Assembly: GCA_964612445.1 (NCBI GenBank)
Contig: CAZTBQ010000002.1
Coordinates: 1-27,444, forward strand
Reading direction: 5' to 3'
DNA length: 27,444 bases
Origin: an uncultured Candidatus Saccharibacteria bacterium
GTDB taxonomy: Bacteria; Patescibacteriota; Minisyncoccia; UBA6257; 2-01-FULL-56-20
Position 1 is the first letter of the stretch, and each line of letters opens with the position of its first letter. Position numbers and translations under genes: made by a program. The notes under the pieces were generated by a model. It ran no database searches, was not told where the DNA came from, and saw only the letters and a list, made by a program, of their open reading frames with translations. Shown piece by piece: positions 1 through 8,534 of this stretch.

Positions 1-2
1 AC

Positions 3-1283
3 ACCTCTCTTAACTTATTTTCCTCTGATGTAGTAAATGGCTTCATGGGAACTTCCACAATAATCTACGTATCTATCCCAGACTCATCTCCAACCTGTGC
101 CAATTTAGGACTTCCAACACTGGCAACTTCTTCATATACATATAATTGCGTAACAACTCAAAATCTCCGCAAAACTGATGGCACCGGTTGGATTCCGGTT
201 AACTTCCAAAGAATCTCATCTAATTCTCCAATTTCACAACTTCCAATAGACCCACAAAATACAACTACCACCAACTCCTATTACACTTACATAACTGGAG
301 GTTCTTGGAAGCTAACCGCAGTATCTCTAGAATCTCAAAAATACATAGCTCAAGGTAACACCGATGGAGGAACAGCTCCATCTTCATTTGAAATGGGTAA
401 TAATATGTCACTCGGGTCAACTGTATTTCCAAACAACTGGATTAAAGTCCCCGGAAACTCCACCTTTGGAACATCCGACTTCTGGGTTATGAAATATGAA
501 GCAAAGTGCGCGGATACGAGTGGAAATTTACTCACAACTCCAACTGAATCTACATACCAAATCTACAATGCTCATGGCGCTGGCGGAACTGCTTGTACTT
601 CTGCTAACTCCAGATATGTAACTTCGGCTCCAACTGGATATCCGATAACTCGGATCGCCCAAAACAAAGCGGGCGCAGATAATGATGCTATCGAATACTG
701 CCAATCTATCGGGGCACGCCTAATTACCAACAACGAATGGCAAACTATTTCTTGGAATGTACAAAATGTTTCTTCCAACTGGAGTGGGGGTTCGGTCGGG
801 AGTGTGTACATGAGCAGAGGCAATTCAAATGGTTCCGCAGCACAAATTGCATCCGCAGACGACACAAACTCAACCTACCTTACCGGATACACTGATTTTA
901 CCCATAGGAGAACTCATTCACTTTCCAACGGACAAACAATTTGGGATTTAGCTGGTAACGTTTGGGAGTGGACCAACGACACAATCACTGGAGCGAATCA
1001 ACCGTACGCGACAACTCCAGGTTTTGCATGGAGACAGTTCAATACAATCACAACTTGGGGAACGATGACTCAACAAACTGCAGGTCCCTCCAATAATACT
1101 TGGAGCACAACTCAAGGAATGGGACAAATTTATTCCGATGGCACAGGTTCAAATGCTACTAACTACGCTTTCTTCCGTGGTGGCCGTTGGCTCAATGGCA
1201 CGTACGCCGGAGTAGAGACGTTGGCTCTGGACAATGGCCCGACGATTACGGCCGGCGACATTGGCTTCCGTTGTGCCCGGTAG
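3..1283 (+). CDS. 5'-truncated putative surface protein: pilin-like N-terminal region plus C-terminal FGE-sulfatase/C-type lectin-fold (CLec) domain; probable DGR target
   Basis: Frame is open from base 3 (TSLNLFSSDVVNGF precede the ORF-track Met at 45), so the true start is upstream of the window. CLec/SUMF1-like motifs: KYEAK, AIEYCQSIGARLITNNEW, IWDLAGNVWEW, RGG-x-W, terminal GFRCAR. LPIDPQN...YYTY resembles pilin/GspG-like motifs. Confidence 0.8.
   Translation, partial: TSLNLFSSDVVNGFMGTSTIIYVSIPDSSPTCANLGLPTLATSSYTYNCVTTQNLRKTDGTGWIPVNFQRISSNSPISQLPIDPQNTTTTNSYYTYITGGSWKLTAVSLESQKYIAQGNTDGGTAPSSFEMGNNMSLGSTVFPNNWIKVPGNSTFGTSDFWVMKYEAKCADTSGNLLTTPTESTYQIYNAHGAGGTACTSANSRYVTSAPTGYPITRIAQNKAGADNDAIEYCQSIGARLITNNEWQTISWNVQNVSSNWSGGSVGSVYMSRGNSNGSAAQIASADDTNSTYLTGYTDFTHRRTHSLSNGQTIWDLAGNVWEWTNDTITGANQPYATTPGFAWRQFNTITTWGTMTQQTAGPSNNTWSTTQGMGQIYSDGTGSNATNYAFFRGGRWLNGTYAGVETLALDNGPTITAGDIGFRCAR
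1176..1283 (+). other. Putative DGR variable region (VR)
   Basis: 68/108 nt G+C (63%, counted), clearly above the gene body; all four Thr codons are ACG. Positions that are Asn in typical template repeats carry NNC/NNT codons (CGT, CTC, TAC, GCT, GAC, ATT, GCC, GGC, GAC). Confidence 0.75.
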
Positions 1284-1350
1284 ATATTATTTGATCCCGC
1301 ACTAAACCGGGCATAGTCCTTGAGATGGCGATCGTTGCATGGTTTCAGGG

Positions 1351-1380
1351 ACCAAGCACTATGAGTACATAGTACTCGGT
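1351..1380. repeat. 30-nt hairpin repeat (family H), copy 1
   Basis: ACCAAGCACTATG-AGTA-CATAGTACTCGGT, 13-bp stem with 2 mismatches; homologous to 8649-8678. Confidence 0.7.
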
Positions 1381-1411
1381 CAACCGCCAGTACAGGCGGT
1401 TGACTTATTTT
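1379..1411 (+). terminator. Perfect 10-bp hairpin followed by T-rich tract; possible terminator or REP-like palindrome
   Basis: GTCAACCGCC-AGTACA-GGCGGTTGAC then TTATTTT. Confidence 0.55.
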
Positions 1412-1428
1412 CAATTATTTACTATCAT
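1400..1428 (+). promoter_or_regulatory. Sigma70-type promoter for rpsL operon
   Basis: TTGACT (1400-1405), 17-nt spacer, TATCAT (1423-1428), 36 nt before the rpsL ATG. Confidence 0.7.
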
Positions 1429-1464: not shown

Positions 1465-1890
1465 ATGCCGACAATACATCAATTAATTAAAAAAGGGAGA
1501 AAGTCGCTGAAGACCAAAACAAAGTCTCCGGCTTTTTCGTACTATTTTAACCACATTCAAAATAAGCGAGTTGATTCTCCGTCTCCGTTCAAGAGAGGAG
1601 TTTGCTTGAAAGTTTTTACCACCACTCCAAAGAAACCAAACTCAGCCTTGCGAAAAGTTTGCCGTGTTCGTTTGACTAATGGAATGGAAACCACTGCTTA
1701 TATTCCAGGAGAAGGACACAACTTACAGGAACACTCTATCGTTGTTCTCCGCGGAGGAAGAGTTAAAGATTTGCCGGGTGTTAGATATCACGTTGTTCGT
1801 GGTGTTTTGGATACTTCCGGAGTTGATAACCGAAAACAGCAGAGATCAAAGTATGGTTCTAAGAAAAATGCCGGAGCAGCCAAAAAATAG
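1465..1890 (+). CDS. rpsL: 30S ribosomal protein S12
   Basis: [39 protein letters not shown] motifs; long-loop form. Confidence 0.99.
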
Positions 1891-2712: not shown

Positions 2713-4818
2713 ATGCCGCGAATATATCCATTAGAAAAAATTAGGAACATCGGAATTATTGCTCATATTGATGCCGGAAAGACTACTACTTCTGAGCGTG
2801 TTCTTTTCTATACCGGAGTTTCTCACAAAATTGGCGAAGTTCACGAAGGAGCAGCAGTAATGGATTGGATGGAGCAGGAGAGAGAGCGTGGTATCACAAT
2901 TACTTCCGCGGCAACCACGGCTTTTTGGGTTCCAACTTATCGAAAGGGAGATAAAAATTACGAATATCGCTTTAACTTAATTGATACTCCTGGACATATA
3001 GACTTTACTGTTGAAGTTAAAAGATCGCTACGTGTTTTGGACGGCGCAGTAATGGTTTTTGACGGTGTTTCTGGTGTTGAGCCACAATCGGAAACCAATT
3101 GGAGATATGCTGATGACTATCAAGTTCCAAGATTATGTTTTATAAATAAATTAGATAGGATGGGGGCAAGTTTTGTTAATGGATTGGCTTCTATCCACGA
3201 TAGGTTGACTCCAAATGCTGTTGCTATTCAGCTTCCTATTGGGTTGGAGGCGGAACACAAAGGAGTTGTAGATCTTATCAGGATGACCGCTTTTGAATTT
3301 CAGGGTGCTCATGGCGAGAACATTATCGAGATTCCGATTCCTAATGACATGAATGAAGATGTGGCTAAATATCGCCATACTTTAGTTGAAAAAATTGCGG
3401 ATACAGATGATTCTTTGATGTCCAAATATTTAGACGGAGTCGAAATAACTGTAGATGAATTTAAAAAAGCCCTTAGAAAAGCGACCATCGCTAATACTTT
3501 GGTTCCGGTTTTGTGTGGTACCGCTTTAAAGAATAAAGGCGTGCAATTTATGTTGGACGCAGTTGTGGATTATTTACCATCTCCGCTAGACATCCCACCA
3601 ATTAAAGCTATTGACCAGAACACTGGAGTCGAAGTTCCAAGACATTCATCTGACACCGAGCCATTCACTGCATTGGCATTTAAGATCGCAACCGATCCTT
3701 ACGTTGGAACTTTAACTTACTTTAGAAATTATTCCGGAGTTTTGAAGAAAGGTTCTTATGTTTTAAATACTACCAAAGGACAGCAAGAGCGTATTGGACG
3801 TATTGTTCGTATGCACGCTAATGATCGAGAAGAAGTTGATGAAGTCTTTGCCGGAGAGATCGCCGCTATTGTAGGACTTAAAGGGACTACTACTGGCGAC
3901 ACTTTGACCGATCCGACAGCTCCGGTTGTTTTGGAATCTATTACATTCCCTGAGCCGGTTATCGGAATTAGAATTGAGCCGAAGACTAAGGCTGACCAGG
4001 AAAAAATGGGCAATGCTTTACATCGTTTGGCCGAAGAAGATCCAACTTTCCGCGTGGAGGGTGATAACGAAACTGGTGAGACTATTATTTCCGGTATGGG
4101 TGAACTTCACTTGGAAATTATTGTGGATCGTATGAAGCGCGAATTTAATGTTGAAGCCAATGTCGGCAGACCGCAGGTTGCTTATAAGGAAACCATTTTG
4201 GGCGAAGCTGAAGCCGAAGGAAAATATATTCGTCAGTCTGGAGGTCGTGGTCAGTATGGTCATTGTTGGTTGTCCGTGAAGCCTTTGGAACGCGGAAAAG
4301 GATTTGAATTTATCAATGCTATTAAGGGAGGCGCAATTCCACAAGAATTTATTTCTCCGATCGAAAAAGGTGTAAAAGAAGCGGTTAGTCGTGGTGTAGT
4401 TGCCGGATACCCGATTATGGACATAGAAGTCAAACTTTTTGATGGATCTTATCATGAAGTCGATTCTTCGGAAGCCGCGTTTAAGATGGCCGCCTCTATG
4501 GCTTTGCAGGAGGCAGCTAAGAACGCCAAGCCGGTTATTTTGGAACCGATTATGAAAGTTCAGATAATTATTCCGATGGATTACTTGGGTGAGGTTACCG
4601 GTAACGTTAACTCTAAGAGAGGAAGAATTGATGCGATCAACGATCGTGGAAACACTAAGATTATTGATTGTAAGATTCCGCTTTCGGAAATGTTCGGATA
4701 TGTTACCGAGTTGCGTTCAATGACTCAAGGACGAGGAAGCTCCACTATGGAATTTGATCATTACGAGCCAACTCCGAAGAACATTGAGGCAGAGATCGTT
4801 AGTGGAAAACGTAAATAG
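2713..4818 (+). CDS. fusA: Elongation factor G
   Basis: [52 protein letters not shown] motifs; 701 aa. Confidence 0.99.
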
Positions 4819-4823
4819 TGGCG

Positions 4824-4901
4824 TCCCGATTCGGGGCTTCCCCCGAATCGAGGATCCTCGATTTCTTAATCCGCGACTTTTGTCGCGGATAGAAATCGGG
4901 A
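4824..4901. repeat. REP-like nested palindrome cluster
   Basis: CGATTCGGGG-CTTC-CCCCGAATCG (4827-4850) and ATCCGCGAC-TTTT-GTCGCGGAT (4869-4890), enclosed by TCCCGATT/AATCGGGA. Confidence 0.65.
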
Positions 4902-4939
4902 GAAAGAGGAAATAGTAATTGATTTAGAACTAGAAATAC

Positions 4940-4970
4940 CACAAAACCCGCCAACCTGGCGGGTTTTGTG
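4940..4970 (+). terminator. Intrinsic (bidirectional-type) terminator after fusA
   Basis: CACAAAACCCGCCA-ACC-TGGCGGGTTTTGTG, 14-bp perfect stem including A and T tracts. Confidence 0.75.
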
Positions 4971-4992
4971 TTTATGTCGTTGCAAAATTGTG

Positions 4993-5051
4993 CCCCGCCG
5001 AGTAGGCGGGGTTTCTAACCCCTAAGCTCGCAAACTCGCTAAGGGGATTAG
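4993..5051. repeat. Two REP-like hairpins upstream of the tuf promoter
   Basis: CCCCGCC-GAGTA-GGCGGGG (4993-5011) and CTAACCCCT...AGGGGATTAG (5015-5051). Confidence 0.55.
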
Positions 5052-5055
5052 TTAA

Positions 5056-5083
5056 TTGACAAAAAAGCACATTTGACTAGAAT
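5056..5083 (+). promoter_or_regulatory. Sigma70-type promoter for tuf-rpsJ
   Basis: TTGACA (5056-5061), 16-nt spacer, TAGAAT (5078-5083). Confidence 0.7.
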
Positions 5084-5188
5084 TAGATGACTGCTGGGAG
5101 TGGTTTCCTGGCATAAAATATAAACAAAAAACAAGTCGATTAATTTAATTTCAATAGAGGATCGCTTTTAGCGTGACTCAAAAAAATT

Positions 5189-6388
5189 ATGGCAGAAAAA
5201 GAAAAATTTACTCGCGGTAAGCCACACGTTAACGTTGGTACTATTGGCCACGTTGACCAGGGTAAAACAACCCTCACCGCGGCCATTACTCATGTTTTAC
5301 ACATGAAAGGTTTGGCGAAAAAATCAGAGGGAGTCGATGATATCGATAACGCTCCGGAAGAAAAAGCTCGTGGTATTACCATTGCGATTCACCACTCCGA
5401 GTACGAGTCCGAAAAGAGACACTATGCTCACATTGATGCACCAGGTCACGCGGACTACATTAAAAACATGATCACCGGTGCCGCCCAGATGGACGGTGCA
5501 GTATTGGTTGTCGCAGCTACTGATGGTCCTATGCCTCAGACTCGAGAACACATCCTTTTGGCTTACCAGGTCGGTGTGCCGAAAATCGTTGTTTTCTTGA
5601 ACAAGTGCGATATGGTTGATGATCCAGAACTCATCGATTTGGTAGAGTCTGAAGTTCGAGAGCTTTTGAAGAAATATAACTATGATGGAGATGCTACTCC
5701 AGTTATCCGTGGTTCAGCTTTGAAGGCTTTGAATGCGACCGCTGTTGACAGTGCCGATGCTAAACCGATTGTTGATTTGGTTCAGGCTTTGGATGATTTT
5801 ATTCCGGAACCTGTTCGAGAACTCGATAAACCAGCTCTTATGCCTATCGAAGATATTTTCTCTATCGAAGGACGTGGAACTGTTGTTACCGGACGTATTG
5901 AACGTGGAGTCGTTAAAGTTAACGATGAAATGGAAATCATTGGTTTGCGACCAACTGTAAAGACGGTTGTAACCGGTATTGAAATGTTCAACAAACTTTT
6001 GGACGAAGGACAGGCCGGCGATAACGTCGGAATCTTGCTCCGAGGTTTGAAGAAGGAAGATGTCGAACGCGGTCAGGTTATTGCCAAGCCGGGTTCCGTC
6101 ACTCCTCACACCGAATTTGATTGTGAAGTTTACATTCTTTCAAAAGAAGAAGGTGGACGACACACCCCATTCTTTAAAGGATATAAGCCACAGTTTTACA
6201 TCCGAACCACTGACGTTACCGGTGAAGTAACTTTGCCGGAAGGTTCAGAAATGGTTATGCCTGGTGATACAGTTAAACTTAAAGTTAAACTTATTTCTCC
6301 AGTTGCATTGGAAGAAAAGCAGAGGTTTGCTATCCGCGAAGGTGGTAAAACCGTCGGTGCTGGTGTTGTAACTAAGATCAACGCCTAA
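5189..6388 (+). CDS. tuf: Elongation factor Tu
   Basis: [55 protein letters not shown] motifs. Confidence 0.99.
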
Positions 6389-7233: not shown

Positions 7234-7494
7234 ATGTTAGATGATGTAGCAAAAAATGAAAAAAGTTGGGGCAAAGAAGAGTGGCAAGAGATGAGAGCTA
7301 AACTCGAAATTTTGCCGCTCAACAAGCTAAAACTGTTGGCAAAAAATGTTGGTATTCGATTTTCCGGGGAAGATTATGATTTATCGGATCATCCAAAATT
7401 GTCCGAAAAAGAGCAGTTAATTTTAGTTATGGATGAGGTTGAAAAGGAAAAACTCGTTTTTGAGTACGAAAAATTGAAAGGAATTACTGAATAA
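7234..7494 (+). CDS. Hypothetical protein (86 aa from ATG 7234); weak resemblance to Rho-N/HeH helical modules
   Basis: The ORF-track GTG at 7198 lies inside a repeat motif, so ATG 7234 is preferred. Contains LEILPLNKLKLLAKNVGI...LSEKEQLI. Confidence 0.65.
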   Translation: MLDDVAKNEKSWGKEEWQEMRAKLEILPLNKLKLLAKNVGIRFSGEDYDLSDHPKLSEKEQLILVMDEVEKEKLVFEYEKLKGITE

Positions 7495-7564
7495 GTATAG
7501 CTTTCTTGTTCGGTGGGCTTTTTTGGTTTATTCTTTTTGTAGCAATTAAAAAGAGGAGGAAGAC

Positions 7565-7912
7565 ATGCTGTCGCGATTCTTTGGGTGGCTGAAGTTACTA
7601 TTTTTCAAGCCTGCCGTCAAAGATCCTGTGGTTGAGCTGACGCGAATAGCAAAATCAGGTATACCTACGGGAGTGACGTTTGATCCCAAAAGTCTAACTT
7701 TCAAGATTACCGATGTTGGCGCATATTTTGGGAATTGGGATGAGTTTGAGCGCGAGAGCGAAGAGCGGCGAATGCGCGCTGAGCGTACGCAAGCCCTGAC
7801 GATTTCTCGTGACGGGGCATCATCAATTGAGACTCCGGAAGACCTTATTAGATATTTTAGGAATGTTCCCGAAGAAAAGCGTCGAGCGGTTTTGTTCGAG
7901 ACAAAAAAGTGA
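7565..7912 (+). CDS. Hypothetical protein (115 aa) with short amphipathic N-terminus
   Basis: AGGAGG (7554-7559) 5 nt before ATG; followed by a terminator hairpin. Confidence 0.75.
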   Translation: MLSRFFGWLKLLFFKPAVKDPVVELTRIAKSGIPTGVTFDPKSLTFKITDVGAYFGNWDEFERESEERRMRAERTQALTISRDGASSIETPEDLIRYFRNVPEEKRRAVLFETKK

Positions 7913-7942: not shown

Positions 7943-7988
7943 ATTCAAAAATGTTATTCTGAAGTTAGCAGTTTTAATGGAGGCGCGC

Positions 7989-8324
7989 ATGAAAAGTGCT
8001 TGGCAGGCCAGAATGGAGGTAGAAGCTCTTATTGAACTTGCCAAAGATGGGATGAGCGTTCCTTCGCCTGGGCTCGGTCAGGGCAAGCGATGTAAAAATA
8101 ATATGCAGATTATCTTGAAAGAGATAAACTCCGCCATCGCTAAGGGGAATTGTTCGGTGTATGTTTCTGCTGGGCAGCTGAGATTTCGCAAGCATATTAT
8201 CAAGGGTGAGCAGGTTGGTATTTTGCTTCGTAGATTGATGCGGCTTGGATACGGTGTTTCATTTCACGCCAGCGAACACTATGGAAGCCCCATAATTCGT
8301 ATTTATTGGAAAACCCAGGTTTAA
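7989..8324 (+). CDS. Hypothetical protein (111 aa from ATG 7989)
   Basis: GGAGG (7979-7983) 5 nt before ATG 7989. The longer ORF-track version (from 7809) overlaps the upstream gene and its terminator. Confidence 0.65.
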   Translation: MKSAWQARMEVEALIELAKDGMSVPSPGLGQGKRCKNNMQIILKEINSAIAKGNCSVYVSAGQLRFRKHIIKGEQVGILLRRLMRLGYGVSFHASEHYGSPIIRIYWKTQV

Positions 8325-8534
8325 GGCTTGGGATTTTTTGTATATTACGAAAATACTAATTGGTACTAATTTTACGAATAATTAGTTGAGCTGTTGGGTT
8401 GACCCCGCACCAAGCCGAACGCTGGTCCTTGAGTATGGTTTGATTTGAGGGTGTTCCGATATTAATAAGTATTATATGGATTGTTATATTTCTTCATTGG
8501 TCGGACAGGAAAGGCGTTCGTCTGGTGACAGGGT

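Follow-up and report, generated by a model that had tools for sequence, protein, structure and literature searches.

A pilin-lectin gene upstream of rpsL in a CPR bacterium ends in a DGR-type variable region, probably orphaned from its cassette

Introduction

How does the 3' end of a gene come to bear the marks of a DGR variable region (VR) when no retroelement lies beside it, and is such a region still being rewritten? This question is raised by the first gene in a 27,444-nt stretch of DNA (the window), which is contig C2 of a 567-kb, 60-contig, 90%-complete assembly (G000) of a CPR/Paceibacteria-type organism. An original prediction, made from the letters alone, held that the last codons of this gene are a VR whose template repeat (TR), reverse transcriptase (RT) and Avd lie upstream of base 1 or elsewhere and act in trans. 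Paul et al. are said to have described, in 2017, CPR-clade DGR cassettes with the order target-Avd-TR-RT. Cassettes of this clade are also treated by Wu et al. 2018 (PMC5758913) and Roux et al. 2021 (PMC8144416), and their FGE-type CLec targets are already well known (PMC5758913, PMC8144416, PMC11661182), pilin-type domains being listed as rare among DGR targets. Targets more than 100 kb away are recorded only in a lineage other than CPR (PMC5758913). What we describe here is this known kind of target, of the FGE-type CLec class, in an orphan state.

Results and Discussion

The gene and its setting

Frame +3 of the window is open from base 3 to the TAG at 1281-1283 in the ORF listing (Table 1). 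Its product matches the Pfam FGE-sulfatase family (PF03781) over residues 210-426 (E=2.3e-12), and an AlphaFold model built with 48 homologs reaches block pLDDT values of 74-92 over residues 141-426. Among solved structures, the model fits the Thermus aquaticus DGR variable protein (5vf4) best, then FGEs, Mtd and TvpA. Likeness to the FGEs is at the level of the fold only, at 14-19% identity, and the protein is not filed as a catalytic FGE enzyme. Its fold class is that of the DGR variable proteins of Thermus (TaqVP, 5vf4), Treponema (TvpA, 2y3c) and Bordetella phage (Mtd, 1yu0-4), with which it also shares variable residues placed in the C-terminal ~35 residues, an ending in GFRC and, in its homologs, the template-Asn pattern. 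Unlike these proteins, it is fused to a prepilin leader and a pilin-like N-domain, and its genome assembly holds no TR, Avd or RT.

The missing 5' end is supplied by contig C32, the reverse complement of whose first 55 nt is identical to window positions 1-55. This contig encodes the absent pilin N-terminus (N_methyl, PF07963, 31.8 bits against a cut-off of 21.2) with alaS directly upstream, and the paralog P0001 carries the N_methyl leader and the rest of the protein in a single piece. The join is credible because a same-genus genome that is 100% complete (G001, Candidatus Liptonbacteria nzgw430) likewise has alaS upstream of rpsL, with the caveat that the junction sequence is also present on contig C10. 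Read in this way, the window gene would encode a lectin-headed type IV pilin-like protein, ~490 residues long, and lie between alaS and rpsL. The most likely role of the protein is that of an adhesin on the pilus, with a ligand-binding face that is now fixed; we read this function from the fold and the pilin leader only.

Since rpsL starts just 181 nt past the VR stop codon, there is no space for Avd, TR or RT on the downstream side. The surroundings agree with the prediction that no TR, RT or Avd lies nearby, with the spacer and then rpsL downstream and alaS and the leader upstream. A cassette just upstream of base 1, as had also been suggested, finds no support in C32, which joins there and carries alaS and the pilin leader and no DGR.

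Table 1. Coordinates of features at the start of the window
Feature	Position	Strand	Remarks
3' part of the pilin-lectin gene, 426 codons	3..1283	+	ORF; 5' end cut by the contig start
Region assigned as DGR VR by descent	1164..1282	+	~12 nt of upstream framework, 35 codons, first two bases of the stop codon
Span of the 11 template-Asn codons	1185..1259	+	Sites are Asn (AAY) codons in homologous TRs
Starts of the template-Asn codons	1185, 1191, 1194, 1203, 1224, 1230, 1233, 1245, 1251, 1254, 1257	+	
Predicted 10-bp stem	1272..1315	+	Last VR codons and stop pair with 1306-1315; 24-nt loop
Genome-specific intergenic repeat motifs	1291..1381 (1291-1316, ~1350-1381)	+	Copies on C4, C7 and at window 8399-8438
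Intrinsic-terminator-like hairpin, 11-bp stem, 6-nt loop, T-run	1378..1412	+	Before the rpsL promoter region
rpsL, first str-operon gene	1465..1890	+	ORF; 95% identical to rpsL of the same-genus genome

Composition and codon signature of the 3' end

The 3' end of the gene departs sharply from the body that precedes it. GC content is 0.63 in 1176-1283 and 0.43 in 3-1175, a level reached by just 0.5% of the 108-nt windows across the 567-kb assembly. The A content falls to 0.15-0.16 from 0.31 in the gene body and GC3 rises to 0.66 from 0.36; the shift in GC3 means that composition has not changed through amino-acid content alone. Within the last 35 sense codons (1176-1280), which the TAG follows, Thr is ACG in four of four cases, and GGA and GTA are the only codons that end in A. 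The GC jump (63%), the exclusive use of ACG and the two A-ending codons had all been read directly from the sequence in the original prediction and stand as they were given. The limits of the VR, ~1164 and 1282 (inside the stop codon), are set by VR/TR homology in 12 DGR-linked homolog loci, and GC over this interval is 0.64. The repeat thus begins ~12 nt before the start given in the prediction (1176).

The pattern of codons at particular sites is equally distinctive. All nine NNY codons that had been singled out are present, and when the sites are taken from the Asn codons of real homolog TRs there are eleven of them, NNY in 11/11 window codons, two of which still read AAT. With an NNY fraction of 0.58 in the gene body, such a run would arise by chance with a probability of ~0.003. 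Among 48 homologs, the template-Asn columns average 3.17 bits of entropy and the remaining columns of the protein 1.36 bits, and nine of the 15 most variable columns lie inside the last 35 residues. Residues that NNY cannot encode (K, E, Q, M and W) make up 3.7% at the template-Asn sites of 88 homologs, compared with a background of 12.7%.

Homologs carry complete cassettes

A large-database search returned 759 homologs (E<=1e-20), the majority of which combine N_methyl and FGE-sulfatase domains. Their C-terminal framework runs from RGG-x-W through AG-V-E-x-L to GFRC, with the hypervariable positions between these anchors. When 80 loci from species-representative genomes were scanned for a partner of their own last 105 nt, 11 had a second copy 560-1340 nt downstream of the gene copy. 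These (L018-L023, L025, L028, L043, L044 and L050), together with L131, make 12 loci with the arrangement VR-Avd-TR-RT. Each cassette locus has 8-18 VR/TR mismatches, nearly all at TR adenines (for example 18/18, 12/12, 13/13 and 17/17); between the gene copy and the TR is an Avd gene of ~111-137 residues, and past the TR comes an RT of ~320-360 residues. The L019 proteins score 84.9 bits (RT against RVT_1) and 69 bits (Avd against bAvd), and in L131 the cassette, with 17/17 mismatches at A, adjoins a 65%-identical homolog. A further VR/TR pair with the same gene order is found in a genome of the same order (G127). The verified homolog VRs have GC contents of 0.55-0.71 in loci of 0.31-0.52, a jump like that of the window.

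Translated, the homolog TRs have Asn at 11 positions, and the TR pattern that had been predicted for the window matches them almost residue for residue. The nearest TR, L131:7320-7424, differs from the window VR at 25 sites, 14 of which are A in the TR; 10 of the 11 remaining differences are synonymous third-codon changes, which fits a diverged orthologous TR. Because the homologs carry cassettes, their TRs show a matching Asn pattern, their VRs make the same GC jump and the window has NNY at 11/11 sites, we consider descent of the window 3' region from a DGR VR to be established at the level that sequence analysis allows. Fold, column entropy and homolog VR/TR pairs all bear out the proposal of a DGR-type VR in a CLec/FGE-fold C-terminus. 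The layout of the homolog loci is exactly the target-Avd-TR-RT order of CPR-clade cassettes (PMC5758913, PMC8144416), with pilin-lectin genes as targets; unlike these, the window holds a target only, with rpsL following after the short spacer.

One could instead suppose that no retroelement was ever involved, and that ordinary divergence of a conserved lectin C-terminus has come to mimic VR composition. The absence of a cassette speaks for this, as does the fact that the four paralogs of this genome differ at synonymous sites too and were not written from one TR. Nevertheless, the GC3 difference, the complete set of NNY codons and the scarcity of K, E, Q, M and W at the very sites in question all tell against it, the framework codons match those of real homolog TRs, and 12 homolog loci have proven VR/TR pairs. 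We regard this explanation as barely credible.

As a separate observation, the VR and TR copies of L023 (3591-3695 and 4187-4291) both have TGA at the family's conserved Trp codon, and the RT of this locus (4489-5531) is interrupted by a GA-repeat. The locus has the look of a DGR in decay whose nonsense codon was copied into the target; the alternative is TGA recoding.

Search for a cognate TR, RT and Avd

BLAST and an ungapped, A-tolerant scan of the 60 contigs at >=55% identity recovered no cognate TR in the organism's own genome, only the VRs of paralogs. These, on C4, C10 and C53, differ from the window VR by 45-56 mismatches, 13-18 of them at A, and are not A-biased. The RVT_1 (PF00078) and bAvd (PF22296) profiles gave no match at E<=1 in the 90%-complete assembly, and tblastn with RT and Avd proteins of the family gave none in this genome either. 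The search for an A-mismatch partner and a DGR RT that the original prediction had proposed as its own check thus comes back empty in an assembly of this completeness. Beyond this genome, a screen of 401 genomes of the order yielded no cognate TR, its closest candidates being 74-77% identical with >=12 non-A mismatches. An invariant 22-mer of the VR end picked out an unrelated TR (L097) and a copy of the same locus (L098) in metagenome_contigs, with no cognate TR, and had no match in viral_contigs; an 18-mer from the framework likewise had no match in viral_contigs.

Two candidate writers were considered and set aside. The DGR beside rpsL in G001 has a TR of another type, which ends in GFAFAV and is without a counterpart here. 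A single TR for all four paralogs is ruled out, as their invariant codons differ at synonymous sites.

The VR is invariant across samples

The locus is present in many wastewater and sludge runs from different studies, and we compared the VR in assembled contigs, from Logan runs at a depth of ~4-9x and from ENA ERZ795044, bearing in mind that Logan contigs suppress minor variants. The contigs of X1 (529-1379) and X15 (1010-1379) have no differences to the window, VR included. That of X2 (163-1421) has none in the VR and its sole differences are clustered at 404-431, and contig L098 of ERZ795044, identical over 432-1436 and so also across the VR, has the same 404-431 haplotype as X2. The X1, X15 and X2 contigs cross the VR unbroken. 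In X3 the assembly is interrupted at 1081-1196, and the contig that spans 1196-1750 has six differences whose positions are unassigned. The VR is therefore letter-identical in the contigs of three independent runs and in a fourth assembly, and among these (X1, X15, X2 and L098) we see no instance of a VR that differs between populations over constant flanks.

These data bear most directly on the idea of an active remote target, in which an Avd-TR-RT cassette that was missed in assembly or binning, or that is carried by a mobile element in the population, rewrites the VR in trans. The genome is 90% complete and ~130 kb smaller than its same-genus relative, an RT is found in 16 of 24 family relatives and FGE-type TRs in four (G010, G014, G018 and G023), and the VR signature shows no decay. 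DGRs are able to act in trans, examples of non-adjacent targets have been catalogued (PMC5758913), and the window VR resembles such targets, known also from Treponema denticola, in not lying beside an RT. A remote target is defined, however, by a TR elsewhere in the genome that differs from it by A-to-N changes only. No such TR was found here: TR, RT and Avd are all absent from the 567 kb, and no cognate TR came from metagenome_contigs or viral_contigs (22-mer) or from the 401 genomes of the order. Moreover, CPR DGRs tend to have one adjacent target (PMC5758913), and the window VR is static across samples, being identical in four assemblies, even on a haplotype that varies in another part of the gene, and crossed without a break by the contigs of X1, X15 and X2. 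On balance, we think rewriting in trans unlikely. Diversification of the VR in trans, the central claim of the original prediction, is not borne out by an assembly without a cassette and a VR that is invariant at the contig level in four assemblies. What that prediction had named as evidence against itself, namely no A-mismatch-only partner, no DGR-clade RT and no variation at these codons, is largely what we find as regards activity, in a genome that is 90% complete and by a contig-level comparison.

The reading that we favor, and consider probable, is that the window VR is an orphaned and now static allele of a pilus lectin, and that a cassette of the family's usual kind has been lost. The last ~118 nt would have been written by mutagenic retrohoming from the Asn-codon-rich TR of an Avd-TR-RT cassette, of the kind that related CPR bacteria have with pilin-lectin genes of this family. 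Such an origin by retrohoming would account for the GC-rich synonymous codons that resemble those of TRs, for the depletion of A and for the NNY codons at every template-Asn site. Subsequent loss or separation of the cassette in this genome would have left the gene between alaS and rpsL, with a repeat-laden spacer after its stop codon and a VR that behaves as a fixed allele. Membership of the family, the signature, the lack of a cassette in the assembly and the invariance across samples are observed; from them we infer that this copy formerly had a cognate cassette, and that the cassette has disappeared and did not simply escape assembly. The signature equals that of DGR-linked VRs in strength, and a loss, if real, would thus not be ancient. 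Against orphan status stand the lack of any Avd or TR remnant next to this copy, the X3 contigs, the shallow contig-level comparison, in which VR variants of low frequency would escape notice, and the state of the assembly, from which, at 90% completeness and in 60 contigs, a 2-kb cassette could be missing.

A block shared with a metagenomic contig

Contig L098, which has 3.3x coverage and aligns in reverse orientation, shares with the window a 1005-nt block (432-1436) of 100% identity that covers the lectin domain, the VR and the spacer. Over window positions 1-300 there are 49 differing sites, and the rpsL/rpsG flank is 83-88% identical (rpsL flank ~85%). Run X2 contains both types of rpsL. 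The block is either a recent between-species exchange of the pilin 3' cassette or the product of a chimeric low-coverage contig.

Were it an exchange, the VR itself might be an import, the 3' part of the gene having been recombined recently from a DGR-bearing relative so that a cognate cassette was never at this locus. Perfect identity of the block between flanks that have diverged by 12-17% speaks for such an event, as does the mosaic nature of the pilin family, which this genome holds in several copies. L098 nonetheless shows the same layout of VR and then rpsL, without a cassette, and may be a chimera joined through the conserved spacer; the GC jump, furthermore, is limited to the VR and not spread over the shared block. 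We consider an imported VR quite improbable.

Relatives and paralogs without a cassette

Orphan VRs recur among the relatives of this gene. The single pilin-lectin gene of G001 has a VR (L017:11126-11230) with a GC content of 0.61 in a locus of 0.42 and with the same AGVETL / G-P-T-x-T framework, and no TR partner for it exists anywhere in the G001 genome. In this framework, in the rise in GC and in the lack of a TR in the genome, it resembles the window VR. It differs in its surroundings: the G001 gene is followed by a 33-codon ORF that matches bAvd positions 1-25 and then by unrelated small genes, and it adjoins rny and gpmI, whereas the window copy has no such stump and lies between alaS and rpsL. 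The G001 locus with its 33-aa Avd stump is a decayed cassette. No cassette was found near the close homologs P0003, P0005 and P0009. These relatives set a precedent for the cassette loss that we propose for the window gene.

The only RT of G001 belongs to a DGR of another target type, directly upstream of rpsL. This complete DGR (G001 contig C3, L016:6871-9461) occupies the alaS-rpsL interval, where the window gene sits in our genome, and comprises a GC-rich 211-aa target with its VR at 7363-7496, a TR at 7946-8079 (83% identical) and the RT; its Avd is on the opposite strand and includes an NQPT run encoded by TGGT repeats. The alaS-rpsL interval is an island with different contents in the two species.

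Within G000, full lectin genes are found on C2, C4, C10 and C53 and pilin N-domains on C3, C8, C32, C34, C36, C44, C49 and C52. The same pilin N-terminal domain, at up to 76% identity, is encoded in a dozen or more places of the 567-kb assembly. Several contig ends fall within this domain (the starts of C2, C8 and C32 and the end of C10), an indication that the family fragments the assembly. The three paralogs of the window gene have VRs at C4:20982-21086 (GC 0.45, GC3 0.29, NNY at 9/11 sites), C10:15892-15996 (GC 0.52, GC3 0.51, NNY at 11/11) and C53:2714-2815 (minus strand; GC 0.42). The same VR framework with weaker signatures suggests that these are older orphan VRs.

This raises a further idea, possible though on the whole doubtful, that the four pilin-lectin paralogs form a frozen library in a DGR-less genome, each VR having been written by a retroelement that was later lost, or by a cassette on a mobile element that was merely visiting the population. 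The paralog VRs would then stand at successive stages of decay, with GC3 at 0.66 in the window, 0.51 on C10 and 0.29 on C4. If this were true, DGRs in CPR would be transient generators of adhesin paralogs, and the excess of GC3 in a VR could date the loss of its cassette.

At the window locus, a DGR VR could be recognized from composition alone and then confirmed through homologs, though the retroelement is absent, and surveys of DGRs that begin with the RT would miss such orphans. Pilin-lectin genes that have the VR signature and lack a cassette recur in these CPR lineages (the window, G001, P0003, P0005 and P0009). The locus is of interest for the fate of hypervariable pilus adhesins, their fixation or loss, in episymbiotic bacteria and does not reveal a new mechanism.

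The spacer and dispersed repeats

The 181 nt between the stop codon and rpsL, which are no part of a DGR, are structured and repetitive. The minimum free energy fold of 1270-1425 has a z-score of -5.98 against shuffles, and the 3' arm of the predicted stem that begins in the VR lies in a dispersed intergenic repeat motif. A hairpin and T-run equivalent to the terminator-like element before rpsL are also present upstream of rpsL in G001. An Avd remnant or a known RNA was rejected as the content of the spacer (1284-1464), which has no Avd similarity and no Rfam match, even at E<=1, and carries dispersed repeat motifs instead; beside the window VR there is neither an Avd nor a TR remnant.

Several elements recur around these genes. 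An AATCT-type tandem motif 5-55 nt past the VR stop is found in most loci checked, DGR-linked and orphan alike (L018, L019, L020, L022, L023, L043, L050, L017 and L026), and is absent after the VR stop of the window gene and of its three paralogs in G000; its possible roles include those of a promoter for Avd and of a target-site element. The spacers after rpsL (1893-2010) and rpsG (2537-2655) hold the same ~120-nt element, with inverted ends CCGAGCACA / TGTGCTCGG. Of the 8-mer CCGAGCAC the genome has 33 copies, where 7.9 would be expected. A perfect 20-nt palindrome, CCTGCCTGCCGGCAGGCAGG, has six copies in G000 against ~0 expected, with sites on C11, C23 and C32; it also occurs at L016:1863-1906, 3430-3473 and 7776-7819, and it lies directly past the VR stop in L018, L019 and L026.
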